Below, one piece after another: positions 7,517 to 14,584 of a DNA stretch of 64,000 nucleotides. A program made the position numbers and the translations under genes. Source of the stretch: Patescibacteria group bacterium (GTDB lineage: Bacteria > Patescibacteriota > Patescibacteriia > JACRDY01); the NCBI GenBank assembly GCA_041671565.1, contig JBAZBH010000005.1, positions 3,083 through 67,082 on the forward strand, written 5' to 3'. The notes below the pieces were generated by a model that saw only the letters and a program-made list of their open reading frames with translations, was not told the DNA's origin and searched no databases. Each line of letters opens with the position of its first letter. The stretch's first letter is position 1.

Positions 7517-8587
7517 ATGATTGGTTTTTTTGCCATCAAAATTGCCGTTTTGACGACACTGGGGTTCGCGGTGGCGCTCCTTTGGACGCCGCTCTTGACC
7601 CATTTTTTGTATAAATATAAATGTTGGAAAAAAACCGTCCGCACCACAGCGCCGGACGGCGCCGGCACGCCGATATTTAACCAACTGCACCAGCACAAGG
7701 AAACCAATGTGCCGCGGATGGGCGGGCTATTAATTTGGGTGACGACTTTATTTTTGGCTTTTATTTTTTTGATCTTTTGCCCGATTTTCAGCACTTGTTC
7801 TTGGCTCCAGAGCTTAAGCTTTCTCAACCGCGCCGAGACTTGGCTGCCGCTGTTCACTCTGGTCAGCGCTTCACTGATTGGCCTCCTTGATGACATTTTG
7901 GTGGTGCGGGGTTTTGGCGAGAAGGGCAAAGGCGGGGGAATCCGCTTTCGCCATCGTTTGCTGCTCGTTTCGTTGATCGGTTTAATCGGCGGTTGGTGGT
8001 TTTACTTCAAATTGGATTGGGACTCAATCCATATCTTGTTTGATGGCTCGCTGGCGCTCGGTTGGCTGTTTATCCCATTTTTTATTTTGGTGATGATCGC
8101 GATGTTCAGTACCAGCGTGACTGACGGACTGGACGGCCTGGCCGGCGGGTTGTTTATGATTATGTTCGTCGCTTATGGCGCGATTGCTTTTGCCGGCGGC
8201 AAGGTTGACTTGGCGGCTTTTTGCGGCGTGATTGCGGGCACCCTGGCGGCTTTTCTCTGGTTTAATATTCCGCCGGCCAGATTTTATATGACCGAAACAG
8301 GAATTTTGGGTCTCACCACCACTCTCGCGGTTGTGGCTTTTCTGACCAACGCGGTTTTACTTTTGCCAATTATCGCCTTCGTGCCGCTGGCCGAATCCGG
8401 CTCGGTGATTATTCAGCTCTTGTCCAAAAAATTTCGAGGCAAAAAAGTCTTCCTCTCTTCACCCTTGCACCATCACTTGGAGGCCAAGGGCTGGCCCGAA
8501 GCCAAAGTGGTGATGCGGTTTTGGCTGATTGGCGGGGTGACCGCTATTATTGGCGTGGCGCTGTTTCTTCTAGACAAGACTTTTTAG
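7517..8587 (+). CDS. mraY: phospho-N-acetylmuramoyl-pentapeptide transferase MraY
   Basis: Polytopic membrane protein with MraY motifs LIGLLDDILVV and STSVTDGLDGLAGG. Confidence 0.8.
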   Translation: MIGFFAIKIAVLTTLGFAVALLWTPLLTHFLYKYKCWKKTVRTTAPDGAGTPIFNQLHQHKETNVPRMGGLLIWVTTLFLAFIFLIFCPIFSTCSWLQSLSFLNRAETWLPLFTLVSASLIGLLDDILVVRGFGEKGKGGGIRFRHRLLLVSLIGLIGGWWFYFKLDWDSIHILFDGSLALGWLFIPFFILVMIAMFSTSVTDGLDGLAGGLFMIMFVAYGAIAFAGGKVDLAAFCGVIAGTLAAFLWFNIPPARFYMTETGILGLTTTLAVVAFLTNAVLLLPIIAFVPLAESGSVIIQLLSKKFRGKKVFLSSPLHHHLEAKGWPEAKVVMRFWLIGGVTAIIGVALFLLDKTF

Positions 8588-8595
8588 AATTATAT

Positions 8596-11500
8596 ATGAA
8601 TGAAGAATTTACTAAAAATTATTTAAATCGGATAATAGAAACCCATAAAAGCGGTCAGGCGACCGAGCATTCTTATCGTCCGGCACTTCAGGAATTGTTT
8701 GAAAAAGTTACGGCTTTAAGAGTTCATAACGAACCAAAACGGAGCGAATACGGCGCGCCGGATTTTGTTTTTGTCAACAAAAAGATTATAGTCGCTTACG
8801 CTGAAGCTAAGGATATTAATGTTTCTCTTAATGAAATAGAAAAGAGCGAGCAAATGATCCGTTATTATGGTTATACTAATATCATTTTAACCAATTCTTT
8901 GGAATTCAGATTTTATAAAAGCGGCCAAAAGTTTTATGAGCCGATAAAAATTGCCGAATTAAAATCAGGAGAAATTATTGCAGTTGAAGAAAATTTTAAG
9001 TTATTAGATGATTCCATAAAAGATTTTATCAGCGAGGCTAATGAGCCGATAAAATCCGGCGCGGTTTTGGCTAAAGTGATGGCGGGTAAGGCCCGCCGTA
9101 TTCGGGATAACATCAAGAAATTTTTAAAAGAAGGCAATACGCCGGCAAATGAAAGCTTGCTGTCCGTGTATAATGTTATTAAAAGATTACTCTTGGCTGA
9201 TTTGGATCATGATAAATTCGCTGATATGTACGCCCAGACGGTGGTTTATGGTTTATTTGTGGCGCGTTATAACGACGATACCCCTGATACTTTTTCCCGC
9301 CAAGAGGCGCGCGATTTGGTGCCGAGGTCAAATCCATTTTTACGCAAATTTTTTGATCATATTGCCGGGGAGGATTTTGACAAACGGATAGAGTTTATTG
9401 TTAGCGAACTTTGCGAGGAATTTATTCATGCCGATGTAAAGGCGATCGTCCACGATTATTATAAAGTGGAAAAGGATGACAGTCGCGACCCGATTATTCA
9501 TTTTTATGAAGATTTCTTGCAGGAGTATGACGCGGCCGAACGCAAAAAAATGGGAGTTTTTTATACTCCGTTGCCGGTGGTGCGGTTTATTGTGCGGGCG
9601 ATTGATGATGTGCTTAAAAAAGAGTTTGGTTTAAAGGGCTTAGCTGATACTTCTAAAGTGGAAATTCAGGGTGTCAGCCAGGGCAAGAAATATAAACAAA
9701 GCGTCCATAAAGTTCAGATACTTGATCCGGCCACTGGCACCGGTACATTCCTTAACGAAGTAATTGAGTATATTGAAAAATCATTCACCGGTCAGAAAGG
9801 CCGTTGGGTCAGTTATGCCCAGGAGGATCTGTTGCCCCGCCTTCACGGGTTTGAAATTATGATGGCCTCATACACCATCGCCCATCTTAAACTTTCCACC
9901 ACGCTTAAGGAGGGCGGAGTGGATATGGGCAAGGGGCGATTAGGCGTGTATTTGACCAATAGCTTAGAAAAAGCTGAAAGCTATGACAATACTCTTTTTG
10001 CCGGTTTGGGATTGGGTCAGGCAATCACCGATGAATCAGTTGCGGCCAATAAAGTCAAAAACGATCTGCCGATAATGGTGATATTAGGAAATCCGCCCTA
10101 TAATGTCAGTTCGCAGAATAAAGGCGAATGGATTGGCGAGTTGATAAAAGATTATAAGAAGGATTTAGGTGAAAGAAAGATTAACTTGGATGACGATTAT
10201 ATTAAATTTATTCGTTTTTCGCAGTATTTAATAGATAAAAACGGTGAAGGAATTATTGGCATGATTACCAATAATTCATACATAGACGGCATTACCCATC
10301 GGCAGATGCGCAAAACCCTTTTAGAGTCATTTGACTGTATTTATGTTTTAGATTTACACGGCAATGCCAAGAAAAAAGAAACCGCGCCCGACGGTGGTGT
10401 CGATCAGAATGTATTTAGTATTATGCAAGGCGTATCTATTACGATTTTTGTCAAAAAAGCCGGCAAGAAAAAAGCCCTCGGCGCGGTTTATCATGCTGAA
10501 TTATTTGGCAAACAAAAGGATAAATATGAGGCGTTGAACAACGCGACTATAGAAAAAATAAAATGGAAGAAGCTTGACTATAAAGAGCCTTATTATTTTT
10601 TTGTACCTAAAGATTTTAGTTCGCAAGAAGATTATGATAATGGTTTCTTAATAACAGATCTTTTTGATATTTATTCAGCTGGGATAAAAACAAAAGTTGA
10701 TGATATAGCAACTGATTTTAGCAGAAATATTTTATTTGACAGAATAAATAAAATTTTAACAAATAAGCCGTCGTTAAAAGAGCTTATTACTCAATATAAT
10801 CTAGGGACAAATACCACATGGGAATACGAAAAGGCGAGCAGGGCAATTTTTGATGAGTCAAAAATAAGAAATTTTTCATATAGGCCATTTGATTATAGAT
10901 TTGTATATTTTGATCACGATTTTTTATCTAGAAGTAGAAAGAAGGTTATGGAACACATCGTGAAGGATAATTTAGCACTATCTTTTATTCACCAAGGAAG
11001 AAATAAGGGAGTAGAAGCTCTAATTACAAAAGAAGTAACTTGTGAAGATTTTATTACAAACCATACTTTTACGGCTCCACTTTATCTTTACGATGGAAAA
11101 ATAAAAATGGGTGCCTCGGGAACTATTGAGGCCGAAAGAGTGCCAAATCTAAATTTGTTGATTGCAAGAAAGATCGCAGAATGCGTTGAGATGGTTTACT
11201 ACCCGGTTGCGGAATATGAAACTATTAAACCAGACAAGCGTCTTACTCCAGAGAACATCTTAGATTATATTTACGCGGTTTTATATTCTCCAAGTTATCG
11301 CGAGAAATATAAGGAGTTTTTGAAGATTGATTTTCCGCGCGTGCCATATCCCAAAGATGAAAAACAGTTTTTTGCGTTGGCTAGATTGGGCGAGGAATTG
11401 CGTCATCTGCATTTATTGGAAAGTCCGAAAGTTGATAATCCTATTACCACTTATCTAATAGCGGGCGATAATTTAGTTGAAAAAGTTAATTATCAAGATG

Positions 11501-11727
11501 GCAAGGTTTATATCAATAAAACCCAGTATTTTGTCGGAGTACCAGAAGAAGTTTGGAATTTTTATATTGGCGGCTATCAGCCGGCGCAAAAATGGCTTAA
11601 AGACCGCAAAGGCAGAAATCTTGCCAGTGAAGATATTGAACATTATCAAAAAATGATTGTTTCTATTTTTGAAACAATAAGAATTATGAAGGAGATTGAT
11701 CAAATTGTTGAAAAAAATAGTAAATAA
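8596..11727 (+). CDS. Type IIL/IIG restriction-modification enzyme, MmeI family (fused PD-ExK endonuclease, N6-adenine methyltransferase and TRD)
   Basis: N-terminal nuclease motif GAPDFVFVNKKIIVAYAEAK (D..E.K), MTase motif I ILDPATGTGTFL, motif IV ILGNPPYNVSS, total 1043 aa. Start taken at the ATG at 8596 because the track start 8521 overlaps mraY. Confidence 0.8.
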   Translation: MNEEFTKNYLNRIIETHKSGQATEHSYRPALQELFEKVTALRVHNEPKRSEYGAPDFVFVNKKIIVAYAEAKDINVSLNEIEKSEQMIRYYGYTNIILTNSLEFRFYKSGQKFYEPIKIAELKSGEIIAVEENFKLLDDSIKDFISEANEPIKSGAVLAKVMAGKARRIRDNIKKFLKEGNTPANESLLSVYNVIKRLLLADLDHDKFADMYAQTVVYGLFVARYNDDTPDTFSRQEARDLVPRSNPFLRKFFDHIAGEDFDKRIEFIVSELCEEFIHADVKAIVHDYYKVEKDDSRDPIIHFYEDFLQEYDAAERKKMGVFYTPLPVVRFIVRAIDDVLKKEFGLKGLADTSKVEIQGVSQGKKYKQSVHKVQILDPATGTGTFLNEVIEYIEKSFTGQKGRWVSYAQEDLLPRLHGFEIMMASYTIAHLKLSTTLKEGGVDMGKGRLGVYLTNSLEKAESYDNTLFAGLGLGQAITDESVAANKVKNDLPIMVILGNPPYNVSSQNKGEWIGELIKDYKKDLGERKINLDDDYIKFIRFSQYLIDKNGEGIIGMITNNSYIDGITHRQMRKTLLESFDCIYVLDLHGNAKKKETAPDGGVDQNVFSIMQGVSITIFVKKAGKKKALGAVYHAELFGKQKDKYEALNNATIEKIKWKKLDYKEPYYFFVPKDFSSQEDYDNGFLITDLFDIYSAGIKTKVDDIATDFSRNILFDRINKILTNKPSLKELITQYNLGTNTTWEYEKASRAIFDESKIRNFSYRPFDYRFVYFDHDFLSRSRKKVMEHIVKDNLALSFIHQGRNKGVEALITKEVTCEDFITNHTFTAPLYLYDGKIKMGASGTIEAERVPNLNLLIARKIAECVEMVYYPVAEYETIKPDKRLTPENILDYIYAVLYSPSYREKYKEFLKIDFPRVPYPKDEKQFFALARLGEELRHLHLLESPKVDNPITTYLIAGDNLVEKVNYQDGKVYINKTQYFVGVPEEVWNFYIGGYQPAQKWLKDRKGRNLASEDIEHYQKMIVSIFETIRIMKEIDQIVEKNSK

Positions 11728-11754
11728 AACCCGTTGACTAAAAAAATTATCTAT

Positions 11755-12147
11755 ATGATAAATAAAAATAGAATGGGCGAAATAAGTTTGATAATAGTTC
11801 TTATAGTTTTTGCTGGGCTATTTTTTTGGGCTAAACAATATTGGATCACCTTTCTAGCCTTGGTCATAACTTTAGTTGGTTGGCGCGTAGAAGATGTTTT
11901 ATATTTTTCTGTTACTAAGGAAGGAATTAAGGTTAAACTATCAGCATTACGGAAAGAATTTGAAACAACATTACGTTCAGATAAATCAATAGACGAAAAA
12001 GTAAAGGCATCGCAAGAATTAATTGATGAGGCCTTTCGCGCGGGCTATCAAATTGCCGGCGGTAAAAAAGTTGTTGGAACAATTAATAATGTAAAAATAT
12101 GGGGAAGCAAGGATGGTAATAAAAATATTCAGTATGATGAAACTTAA
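11755..12147 (+). CDS. hypothetical 2-TM membrane protein in the defence island
   Basis: Track ORF 11734..12147 begins at a TTG inside a TTGACT -35-like box; the first ATG is at 11755 (alternative 11773); 2 TM plus a soluble C-terminal domain; no motif. Confidence 0.35.
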   Translation: MINKNRMGEISLIIVLIVFAGLFFWAKQYWITFLALVITLVGWRVEDVLYFSVTKEGIKVKLSALRKEFETTLRSDKSIDEKVKASQELIDEAFRAGYQIAGGKKVVGTINNVKIWGSKDGNKNIQYDET

Positions 12148-12164
12148 TAAAAATTAATTAATAG

Positions 12165-12248
12165 TTGGTCAGCAAAAAAATAGACGAGGAAGTCTATCAG
12201 CTTTATGGTTTGACCGAGGAGGAGATAAAGGTGGTGGAGGGAAATTAA
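12165..12248 (+). pseudogene. orphan C-terminal fragment of an N6-adenine RM methyltransferase/type IIG enzyme (TaqI_C-like tail ...KKIDEEVYQLYGLTEEEIKVVEGN*)
   Basis: A 27-codon open frame ending in the characteristic ..VYxLYGLTEEEIxxVEG C-terminus of type IIG/gamma-class MTases; a stop sits immediately upstream in frame; the upstream MmeI-like ORF ends ...EIDQIVEKNSK, i.e. at a homologous IDxxV position. Confidence 0.5.
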
Positions 12249-12255
12249 TTGGATA

Positions 12256-12290
12256 AGAAAAGAACGAGTCGCGGTCTCGTTCTTTTATAT
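12256..12290. terminator. bidirectional rho-independent terminator hairpin between convergent genes
   Basis: AAGAACGAG-tcgcggt-CTCGTTCTT followed by TTTT on the plus strand and A-run on the other. Confidence 0.6.
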
Positions 12291-12668
12291 ATCTTGTTTT
12301 TTTAAATATTCTTTTAAACTTCGCGTGTAATCGTTATATTTGTCTTTTTTGCGGTGTCCTTCGTCGCGGAAACCTAACTCTTTTCGTTTTTCTATAAAAT
12401 CAAGATTAATTGCGCATTCAGCCAAATCAAGAAAATAAACTATTCTGTATCCGCCGCTTTTGCCTTTATTGCTATCTGGGTTGGGGATTCCGGCCGACCA
12501 GGCTTCGTAGCGATTTTTTGGCGATCGATAGACGAGTTTTTGACGCGGCAACTCGCAACGGCTCACTGTTGGCGCCCATAGTTTAATAGCATCTCGCACG
12601 GTAATTGAAATCCCATTTTTTTCGCACAGGCGCACAAATTGTTCTCGCTCAATATAAATCCAGGCCAT
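12285..12668 (-). CDS. HigB-2 / RelE-like toxin (PF06296-type) of a type II toxin-antitoxin pair
   Basis: Motif NKGKSGGYRIVYFLD matches the HigB-2 signature KGKGKRGGSRIIYYFLD; 12-nt spacing after the upstream antitoxin stop. Confidence 0.6.
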   Translation of the reverse strand: MAWIYIEREQFVRLCEKNGISITVRDAIKLWAPTVSRCELPRQKLVYRSPKNRYEAWSAGIPNPDSNKGKSGGYRIVYFLDLAECAINLDFIEKRKELGFRDEGHRKKDKYNDYTRSLKEYLKKQDI

Positions 12669-12680
12669 AGATGTGACAAC

Positions 12681-13181
12681 TTACCGAAAAAAATCAATGT
12701 CGCGCGCATAAGCGTAATCAACGACTTCATACGGTTTTGAATAGAACCAAGGCGCTTCAAGGTGCGTTTGGGCAACGATTTTTTCGGTCGGCCAATTTCC
12801 GAATTCGTCACAAATTTGTTTGAGTAATTTTTTTTGATTGACGGAGAAAACAGATTCATCAAAATTTTTTACATCTTTAATCTCAAAACTAATCATTTCG
12901 CCGTCCATATAATTGACTGATTTAGTATCAATTGCTCCTTCAGTTTTAAGTTTAGAAAGAATTTCATCAATTCGTGATGGTACGGGACCATAGCCCTGAT
13001 GTATATACACATCGCCAGTAACTGTTTTTTTATGATCACGAAAATATATAAAATCAAGATAATACAAAAGTTTATTTAGCTTTGTAGCATGTAAATACTG
13101 ATTATTACAGTATTTAATAAAATATAGGACGGCGTTATTGTAAACTCGCTCGTCAATTGCAGGGCAGATAGCTTTGACCAT
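12681..13181 (-). CDS. Panacea-domain (DUF4065, SocA-like) antitoxin
   Basis: KLNKLLYYLDFIYF...IHQGYGPVPSRI matches the Panacea signature (KLxKLLYY ... YGPV). The track gives a TTG start at 13223 that lies inside a TTGACA promoter box; the ATG at 13181 is preferred. Confidence 0.55.
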   Translation of the reverse strand: MVKAICPAIDERVYNNAVLYFIKYCNNQYLHATKLNKLLYYLDFIYFRDHKKTVTGDVYIHQGYGPVPSRIDEILSKLKTEGAIDTKSVNYMDGEMISFEIKDVKNFDESVFSVNQKKLLKQICDEFGNWPTEKIVAQTHLEAPWFYSKPYEVVDYAYARDIDFFR

Positions 13182-13258
13182 ATTGTTATCTGCATAATAA
13201 CATAAATAAGTATTTTTACGCAATTAAATCTTGTCAAGAATTAAGCTGTGTAAAACTT

Positions 13259-13288
13259 ATTGACAAAGCTTTGTTATCGGCGCTATAA
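13259..13288 (+). promoter_or_regulatory. promoter of the lexA-like/mazF operon (TTGACA-18-TATAAT) with an overlapping TTGTCAA...TTGACAA inverted repeat (candidate operator)
   Basis: TTGACA 13259..13264, TATAAT 13283..13288; cTTGTCAAg at about 13230 and TTGACAAa at 13259 form an inverted repeat. Confidence 0.45.
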
Positions 13289-13322
13289 TTGGGTAATAAG
13301 GCAGTACAATAAATAATGATAT

Positions 13323-14069
13323 ATGCATTTAATCCAAGAAAAATTGTTAAATTTAGCTAAAAATAATAATTTAACTGATTTAACATTAAGGAAAATAGGG
13401 GAATTAATCGGCGAACCGAATAGTCCCCAAAAAATAAAGCATCATTTGGATAAATTGATTGCCAAGGGTCTTCTGTTGGTCGGCGCTGACGGCAAGGCGT
13501 TAAAAGTCGCTGCTAGCGGCCTAGATGAAAAATCAAAGTTAGTTTCTTTGCCAATCGTTGGTTCGGCCAATTGCGGCGAGGCGCTGATTTGCGCCGATCA
13601 AATAGTTGAGGGTTACCTAAAAATATCTTTAAAAATTTTGGGTGATCAATTTAAAAATAGGCTAAAGGATCTATTTATTTTGCGCGCGGTGGGGAGCTCA
13701 ATGAATCGGGCAAATGTGAAAGATAAAAGCATCGAAGACGGAGACTTTGTGGTAGTCGAAAAGAATCAAGGAATTCCAGTTAGCGGCGAGTATGTGGTAT
13801 CGATAATTGATAATATGGCGAATATAAAAAAGTTTTTAGTTGATAAAAAAAACAGACAAATTGTTTTAATATCTGAATCAAATTTTAATATCCCTCCGAT
13901 CTATATACATGAGGATGATCTTTCTAATTATTTAGTTTGCGGCAAAGTGGTTGATGTTATCAAAAAACCGGATGAGCTTCTGTTCGCCAGAGACGAATCA
14001 GCCAAAGACATTTTGAAAACTATTGGTCCTATTTCCAGGGAAGACTATAATTATTATGAAAAATTATGA
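13323..14069 (+). CDS. LexA-like repressor (winged-HTH plus S24 self-cleaving peptidase) with a ~45-aa acidic C-terminal extension
   Basis: Aligns over the whole length to LexA: DNA-binding N-terminus, hinge LPIVGSANCGEA (LexA VAAGEP cleavage region), Ser in LRAVGSSMNRANVKD...DGDFVVV, Lys in ANIKKFLV; extra C-terminal tail DELLFARDESAKDILKTIGPISREDYNYYEKL. Confidence 0.8.
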   Translation: MHLIQEKLLNLAKNNNLTDLTLRKIGELIGEPNSPQKIKHHLDKLIAKGLLLVGADGKALKVAASGLDEKSKLVSLPIVGSANCGEALICADQIVEGYLKISLKILGDQFKNRLKDLFILRAVGSSMNRANVKDKSIEDGDFVVVEKNQGIPVSGEYVVSIIDNMANIKKFLVDKKNRQIVLISESNFNIPPIYIHEDDLSNYLVCGKVVDVIKKPDELLFARDESAKDILKTIGPISREDYNYYEKL

Positions 14070-14419
14070 TTAAAAAAGGCGATCTCGAGTTTGGCGATAT
14101 AGTCTGGACGGAGTTTGATCCTAGTGTTGGGCATGAGTATCAAAATAAAAGACCGGCTATAGTTATCCAATCCAATGAACAATTAAATAAATCTAATCTG
14201 GTAACAGTGATGCCGCTTACAACTCAAGCAGGCAATGTTACGGGAGATGATATTATAATTCCAACCGACCAAGATAATAGGTTGAGGGCGGATTCCGTCG
14301 CTAAGGTCTATTGTATAACTTCATTTGATTATAGTCGTTTTTCTAAAAAAATAGGTAAGGTTAATGCCAAATTGATTATTGCCCTGAAGGAGTATTTAAA
14401 AAAGCATTTTGATCTTTGA
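14066..14419 (+). CDS. mazF: MazF/PemK-family endoribonuclease toxin
   Basis: KKGDLEFGDIVWTEFDPSVGHEYQNKRPAIVIQSN matches the MazF/PemK core (GDIv..dFdP..GhEq...RPalVl); ATGA start/stop overlap with the lexA-like gene. Confidence 0.8.
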   Translation: MIKKGDLEFGDIVWTEFDPSVGHEYQNKRPAIVIQSNEQLNKSNLVTVMPLTTQAGNVTGDDIIIPTDQDNRLRADSVAKVYCITSFDYSRFSKKIGKVNAKLIIALKEYLKKHFDL

Positions 14420-14584
14420 GTTAATATTTTGAGTTATTTTGAAATTAGAAAGTTGCTTGTTAATAAAGTGACTTTTTTTGTTATTTCTGCTAAAATTATT
14501 TAGAAGATATCGCTAGAGTTAAGAAAAATTCCTTTTTAAGTAGTTTTTCAATTTTAGCCATTTTCTATTATAGGCAACCTATTT

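Follow-up and report, generated by a model that had tools for sequence, protein, structure and literature searches.

A 64,000-nucleotide stretch of DNA from a Patescibacteria group bacterium (contig JBAZBH010000005.1, positions 3,083 to 67,082; hereafter the window) carries a two-gene unit in which the gene of a LexA-like protein overlaps that of a toxin of the MazF/PemK family. As far as we could find, this unit is a variant of the type II toxin-antitoxin systems, with an antitoxin of the LexA type, that has not been described before. The LexA-like protein very probably acts as the antitoxin of MazF through a C-terminal tail that extends beyond the LexA fold, an assignment based on comparison of sequences between related loci. 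For the whole chain of events, in which a LexA-scaffold antitoxin of a type II operon releases MazF under the control of RecA, a rough probability of 0.62 is estimated. The elements of the unit are the following.

13231..13266, plus strand: putative operator, an inverted repeat TTGTCAAGAA ... TTATTGACAA whose arms (13231-13240 and 13257-13266) are 90% complementary
13260..13289, plus strand: sigma-70-type promoter, TTGACA-18-TATAAT, with 12 of 12 consensus positions
13323..14069, plus strand: gene of the LexA-like putative repressor and antitoxin, 248 amino acids, with winged helix-turn-helix (HTH), hinge, S24 autoprotease domain and tail
13572..13577, plus strand: Cys84-Gly85 codons, predicted autocleavage site, aligned to LexA Ala84-Gly85
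13698..13700, plus strand: Ser126 codon, predicted nucleophile, aligned to LexA Ser119, invariant
13827..13829, plus strand: Lys169 codon, predicted general base, aligned to LexA Lys156, invariant
13968..14066, plus strand: C-terminal tail PDELLFARDESAKDILKTIGPISREDYNYYEKL, residues 216-248, beyond the end of LexA, putative MazF-neutralising module
14066..14069, plus strand: ATGA overlap between the lexA-like stop and the mazF start, indicating translational coupling; the same 4-bp overlap is found in most related loci
14066..14419, plus strand: gene of the MazF/PemK endoribonuclease toxin, 117 amino acids, with the Arg29 codon at 14150-14152 and the Thr52 codon at 14219-14221

An earlier note on this DNA, made from the sequence of the window, had described two open reading frames (ORFs) joined by an ATGA overlap, the second of them encoding a canonical MazF, and had remarked on the absence of a MazE; all three statements held. 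The coordinates and the overlap were reproduced, with products of 248 and 117 amino acids. Judging by its alignments, the 117-amino-acid protein is a canonical MazF and is predicted to be a sequence-specific endoribonuclease. It matches PemK_toxin with E=1.4e-22 and 80.4 bits, against a Pfam cut-off of 23.1, and its residues 1-81 align without gaps to Escherichia coli MazF with retention of the catalytic residues Arg29 and Thr52, the former being invariant and the latter nearly invariant in a clade of 31 MazF members. Its closest solved structures are those of Mycobacterium tuberculosis MazF9 and MazF6 and of E. coli MazF. Between the promoter and murD no MazE-like ORF of at least 20 amino acids was detected; the other ORFs found at the pair are embedded antisense or out-of-frame ones, together with small ORFs of 24 and 21 amino acids in the intergenic region. 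When the 248-amino-acid protein was compared with Pfam, Peptidase_S24 was its sole match, and none was obtained to MazE, AbrB or ribbon-helix-helix families.

The association between the tail and mazF was followed across a collection with one genome per species, in which 80 loci for relatives of the LexA-like protein were detected. The acidic tail is present in 36 of them, and 30 of these have an intact mazF directly downstream, in most cases overlapping by the same 4 bp. In four others mazF is truncated, frameshifted or reduced to a remnant, in one, located at a contig end, only the start of mazF is visible, and in the last one mazF is replaced by a Bro-N gene (L003:6757-7560). None of the 39 loci of a tail-less group, whose proteins end right after the S24 domain, contains mazF, and the gene is also missing from four loci (L008, L010, L015 and L027) that encode a diverged basic tail (..ILKYGKPI..KKKKK) and that, by identity, fall within the range of the tailed forms. 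Altogether, mazF or a remnant of it lies directly downstream in 35/36 tailed loci versus 0/43 of the others, for which Fisher's test gives a p of about 1e-21, a value that is optimistic because the loci are kin and not independent. On these comparative grounds the pairing is not due to chance, and the recurrence in other genomes that the earlier note had proposed to look for is borne out by the presence of mazF, or a remnant of it, beside tailed relatives in 35 of 36 species-level genomes. The tail-bearing pair, counted by its tail, is represented in at least 36 species-level Patescibacteria genomes and in hundreds of metagenomic variants. Locus L039, cut by a contig end, was left out of this three-group classification; considered at one point as a second paralogue in the same metagenome-assembled genome (MAG) as L037, it is in fact a strain variant about 93% identical to it. 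Downstream of the mazF-less relatives, RhuM, Bro-N, KilA-N or MscS genes are found instead.

A reciprocal test was started from MazF and covered 45 metagenome loci, in 42 of which the C-terminus of the partner protein was readable. The tail motif ends the partner in 41 of these 42 loci, the exception (L098) having only 82 bases upstream of mazF. The proteins that precede close MazF relatives differ widely and include, besides the 248-amino-acid LexA-like form, XRE-HTH proteins fused to a Panacea domain (about 281 amino acids), a 111-amino-acid XRE-HTH protein, an 83-amino-acid Phd/YefM-like protein, a 79-amino-acid protein with no Pfam match and several unclassified ones of 81-137 amino acids. 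What they share is a motif of about 24 residues that reads roughly [AG][KR]D[IV]LKx[LI]GP[IM]SKE[ED]YDYYENL. When a tail-only profile built from the LexA-type tails was run against 1.84 billion cluster representatives, 109 proteins were recovered, mostly of 40-150 amino acids, the motif lying at their C-terminus or close to it; full-length 248-amino-acid proteins were absent among these 109 representatives. One of the proteins bearing the motif is only 46 amino acids long, little more than the tail, and overlaps a 117-amino-acid PemK gene by 4 bp (L139:2501-2991; also L140) at a locus adjoining an MmeI/Eco57I-type restriction-modification (RM) gene, which makes it a candidate minimal MazF antitoxin. 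Furthermore, tail identity tracks the identity of MazF and not that of the scaffold (cross-scaffold Spearman rho 0.41): tails are 64% identical in cross-scaffold pairs whose MazFs are at least 65% identical, versus 52% in same-scaffold pairs whose MazFs are less than 50% identical. In a neighbour-joining tree of MazF, built on biased sampling and without support values, other scaffolds are nested among the LexA-coupled MazFs. Taken from these comparisons, the conserved functional core of the system appears to be the tail plus MazF, with an exchangeable N-terminal part. A constant tail and MazF on exchangeable scaffolds form the pattern characteristic of an antitoxin segment that binds its toxin. 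Because the tail is found only with a coupled mazF and ends MazF partners that are otherwise unrelated, it can be regarded as the putative MazF-neutralising element. The idea that the LexA-like protein is both a repressor and an antitoxin acting through its tail, already put forward in the earlier note, is thus strongly favoured by the co-occurrence of tail and mazF, by the common motif on unrelated scaffolds and by the conserved promoter repeat described below.

The proteins of about 281 amino acids that combine XRE-HTH and Panacea domains with the same tail, and whose genes share 4 bp with mazF, are encoded at L087:3159-4004 and at about 20 more loci (L102-L125, L136). In these proteins it may be the tail that neutralises the toxin, instead of or besides the Panacea domain, which, if true, would call for some reserve in regarding Panacea as the neutralising domain.

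The tail of the protein in the window comprises 33 amino acids, with eight D/E against five K/R and a net charge of about -3. An extra tail had therefore been recognised correctly, while its length had been overestimated at about 45 residues and its acidity is only mild. Residues 216-248 are considered an extension because, in a profile alignment of the 248-amino-acid protein to E. coli LexA, the end of LexA falls at about residue 217. The only matches of the tail among solved structures, to cytochrome-b5-like proteins, were judged to be chance.

Alignment and a structural model strongly support a LexA fold in which the cleavage site and the Ser/Lys dyad are intact, in line with the full-length likeness to LexA, Ser and Lys included, that had been noticed initially. 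The Peptidase_S24 match (E=1.2e-12) is above the curated Pfam cut-off. The NCBIfam lexA model TIGR00498 aligns to residues 22-215 with 73 bits, under its equivalog cut-off of 110.95, so that the protein is LexA-like and yet is not called an orthologous LexA. An AlphaFold2 model computed from 94 homologues has a mean predicted local distance difference test (pLDDT) score of 85 and finds its best structural matches in full-length LexA (3jso, 1jhh and 8trg, probability 1.0). The sole low-confidence loop of the model spans residues 86-92. In the profile alignment already mentioned, which is the source of all residue correspondences, Cys84-Gly85 falls on the Ala84-Gly85 cleavage bond of E. coli LexA, Ser126 on Ser119 and Lys169 on Lys156. 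The Cys-Gly bond is a type of autocleavage site known from UmuD, and the only known role of residues such as Ser126 and Lys169 is catalysis. All of them are invariant across the 94 homologues, down to 54% identity, which makes a RecA-triggered autocleavage plausible. A total of 1975 homologues of the LexA-like protein were retrieved, the best 120 of which are full length and come from Patescibacteria metagenomes; an identical 248-amino-acid protein is on record from a Patescibacteria MAG.

Tail-less relatives share the motifs SPQKIKHH and PIxGSANCG. They occur in genomes labelled as Acidobacteriota, Bacteroidota and Nitrospirota and on two IMG/VR viral contigs (L045, L057, L059, L061, L067, L068, L071, L074, L076, L077; L081, L082), from which it follows that the LexA-family scaffold is not confined to Patescibacteria.

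At the transcriptional level, the LexA-like protein probably represses its own promoter through GTCAA/TTGAC repeats that lie over the -35 box. The right arm of the inverted repeat contains this box, and the arrangement TGTCAA-N(8-30)-TTGACA has a single occurrence in the 64 kb window, upstream of the gene itself, when 0.06 are expected. Support for autorepression comes from the conservation of the repeats in relatives: 33/37 tail-bearing lexA-like genes are preceded by GTCAA...TTGAC repeats whose right arm falls within the -35 box or beside it, versus 0.3% of control windows, and most related loci have a TTGACA-type -35 box at the equivalent position. At L004 and L011 the repeat is kept even though the gene upstream runs in the same direction and finishes with a hairpin resembling a terminator, and TGTCAA repeats are also carried by tail-less relatives. 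The TTGACA-18-TATAAT promoter with an inverted repeat that had been reported from the window was thus recovered and its repeat is conserved, the arm spacing being the part that varies among relatives. Another motif, the DnaA-box-like TTATCCACA, is found repeatedly in the vicinity of promoters or leaders, whether the lexA-like gene encodes a tail or not (for example L014, L018, L022, L027, L043 and L060); it was seen in relatives and not in the window.

The mechanism proposed would begin with a LexA-like dimer whose two tails keep MazF dimers in an inactive state, on the model of the MazF2-MazE2-MazF2 complex. Upon DNA damage or phage replication, RecA on single-stranded DNA would stimulate self-cleavage at Cys84-Gly85. 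The DNA-binding domain would thereby be lost and repression of the operon lifted, and the fragment formed by the S24 domain and the tail would be opened to proteolysis, like the cleaved LexA fragments that are degraded in E. coli. The freed MazF would then cut RNA and cause growth arrest. Considered alone, the RecA-gated release of MazF, predicted from conserved residues, falls slightly short of even odds. More tentative still is the proposal that a single polypeptide serves as damage sensor, operon repressor and antitoxin, converting a RecA signal into post-translational release of MazF with no separate MazE.

A block of about 6 kb (window positions 7517-14584), with the pair at its end, splits mraY from murD-ftsW-murG. 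The other genes of this block are context and not part of the module.

8521-11727: Type ISP/IIG RM enzyme
within 8521..13223: orf137, a small ORF
12285-12668, minus strand: gene of a 127-amino-acid protein, with no Pfam or PADLOC hit
12681-13223, minus strand: Panacea-domain gene, 180 amino acids, followed by the 127-amino-acid gene

The listed start of the RM ORF, a TTG at 8521, falls within the last part of mraY, so that translation probably begins at a later position. The 127-amino-acid protein has a GGYRIVY-type motif which we take to resemble RelE/HigB-like toxins, and together with the Panacea-domain gene it probably constitutes a second, independent toxin-antitoxin pair. These neighbours, the RM enzyme and the Panacea-domain gene with its partner, are present as the earlier note stated. 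The GC content is 0.33-0.35 over 10.0-14.5 kb, pair included, versus 0.44-0.51 in the flanking genes. This low GC and the interruption of the cell-wall gene cluster indicate that the pair sits in an acquired island. Synteny is not conserved among related loci: for the dcw genes, the Panacea pair and the RM enzyme only three sporadic matches were observed. By composition and context, then, the module is an accessory one in what appears to be a horizontally acquired defence island, and not at a conserved chromosomal position.

Several observations weigh against a LexA-scaffold antitoxin that frees MazF in response to RecA. The tail, which is modelled with high confidence as two helices (residues 218-234 and 239-247), is unlike the disordered tail of a classic antitoxin, and its profile has no detectable similarity to MazE when compared with solved structures in the PDB. 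Regarding the operator, the spacing between the arms varies from 22 to 43 nt among relatives, a strict 17-bp dyad abutting the -35 box (TGTNAA-N4-6-TTGACA) was rejected as it fits 8/37 loci only, and TGTCAA is the reverse complement of the -35 box, so that the repeat could partly be a divergent promoter, although it is also kept where the upstream gene is co-directional. Regarding release, the tail stays with the S24 fragment once Cys84-Gly85 is cut, and a further degradation step is consequently needed to liberate MazF. Both recA and a second operator site are absent from the 64 kb window, and the dependence on RecA rests only on the conservation of the catalytic residues. Part of this evidence agrees better with the same toxin-antitoxin pair working in another manner, with the S24 domain as a scaffold for dimerisation and DNA binding only and with MazF freed by Lon/Clp turnover of the tail or by a phage factor. 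Self-cleavage would in that case be absent, or would merely derepress transcription and raise the levels of both proteins, the toxin not being freed. The position of the cleavage site, upstream of an S24 domain to which the tail remains attached, is compatible with such behaviour, as is the lack of evidence for recA or an SOS-type regulon in the window; moreover, the same tail exists on scaffolds without a protease domain, which implies that neutralisation and release do not require S24. However, the invariance of Cys84-Gly85, Ser126 and Lys169 over such a range of homologues is not expected for a mere scaffold, and this alternative is judged unlikely, if the most serious of the three considered.

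The other two explanations question the role of the pair itself. A repressor similar to phage CI, belonging to a prophage or integrative element that it would control together with mazF as a passenger, so that the pair would not work as a toxin-antitoxin module in its own right, could account for the low-GC island, for mazF-less relatives that are followed by genes characteristic of mobile elements (Bro-N, KilA-N or RhuM), and for tail-less relatives on the two IMG/VR viral contigs. Nevertheless, no integrase or phage structural gene is annotated between mraY and murD, the tail-bearing form is absent from 2.9 million IMG/VR viral contigs, the two genes are found again as a compact unit in varied contexts and the association between tail and MazF is independent of the scaffold, all of which renders this origin very improbable. 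The last explanation holds that a housekeeping lexA stands beside mazF by chance, or merely represses it, with the true antitoxin located elsewhere or absent. It draws on the likeness to LexA over the full length and on the lack of a second lexA in the window, but it is already contradicted by the comparative data: the near-perfect co-occurrence of tail and mazF with a 4-bp overlap in 35 species-level genomes, a tail common to bona fide small antitoxin scaffolds and a position in a non-syntenic, low-GC island leave it with hardly any credibility.

Regarded as a LexA-type antitoxin with its toxin, the pair resembles known systems in different respects. It shares with MazE-MazF (ChpA/PemIK-type) modules a MazF/PemK toxin with Arg29 and Thr52, an antitoxin gene that comes first and overlaps the toxin start, an antitoxin that seems to join a DNA-binding and dimerising part to a C-terminal toxin-binding segment, and a promoter that is probably autoregulated. 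It differs from them in having a LexA winged HTH and an S24 autoprotease, and not an AbrB/SpoVT or ribbon-helix-helix fold, in lacking a Pfam MazE match and in a tail without detectable similarity to solved MazE chains. In E. coli, tisB-istR, symER, dinJ-yafQ and yafNO are SOS-regulated toxin genes under LexA. As in those cases, a LexA-type repressor would tie a toxin to DNA damage, but there LexA is a distinct repressor that acts on transcription in trans, and some other RNA or protein provides the antitoxin, whereas here the LexA-like protein encoded in the same operon is the putative antitoxin. Combinatorial antitoxin networks have been described for Panacea/PanA (PMC8832971) and NetFlax (PMC10440598), neither of which mentions LexA or S24. 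The present family also combines one toxin family with many antitoxin architectures, XRE-HTH plus Panacea among them, and differs in that its constant element is a C-terminal peptide of about 24 amino acids and not a folded antitoxin domain. As is proposed for the present pair, ImmR/ImmA, COG2856-Xre (PMC2701414) and phage CI rely on a damage-responsive, proteolysed repressor that controls an accessory module; in them proteolysis only lifts repression, with no evidence of toxin sequestration by the repressor. In that 2009 comparative survey (PMC2701414) LexA is cited only as an analogy. The opinion that the architecture was uncharacterised still stands, as no description of a LexA/S24-type antitoxin was found in the literature, PADLOC models or large toxin-antitoxin surveys searched, and PADLOC has no model for either the LexA-like protein or this MazF.

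The interest of the finding lies in a candidate trigger, well defined, for the release of the toxin and in a putative MazF-binding peptide that is both minimal and portable. The physiological release of type II toxins from their antitoxins has been the matter of a long-running dispute, and an antitoxin that carries a well-understood, signal-responsive self-cleavage device would provide a concrete trigger, activated RecA. The peptide of about 24 amino acids appears to be all that is needed to couple MazF to nearly any regulatory scaffold, Panacea-domain proteins included, which bears on the evolution of antitoxin modularity and may supply a compact handle for engineering the control of MazF. 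The system also adds an uncharacterised and frequent accessory module to the little-studied Patescibacteria. If the single-polypeptide proposal is true, the module would constitute an SOS-gated growth arrest or abortive-infection switch, and in some reduced Patescibacteria genomes, where the LexA-like protein might be the only LexA, the SOS repressor itself would restrain the toxin.

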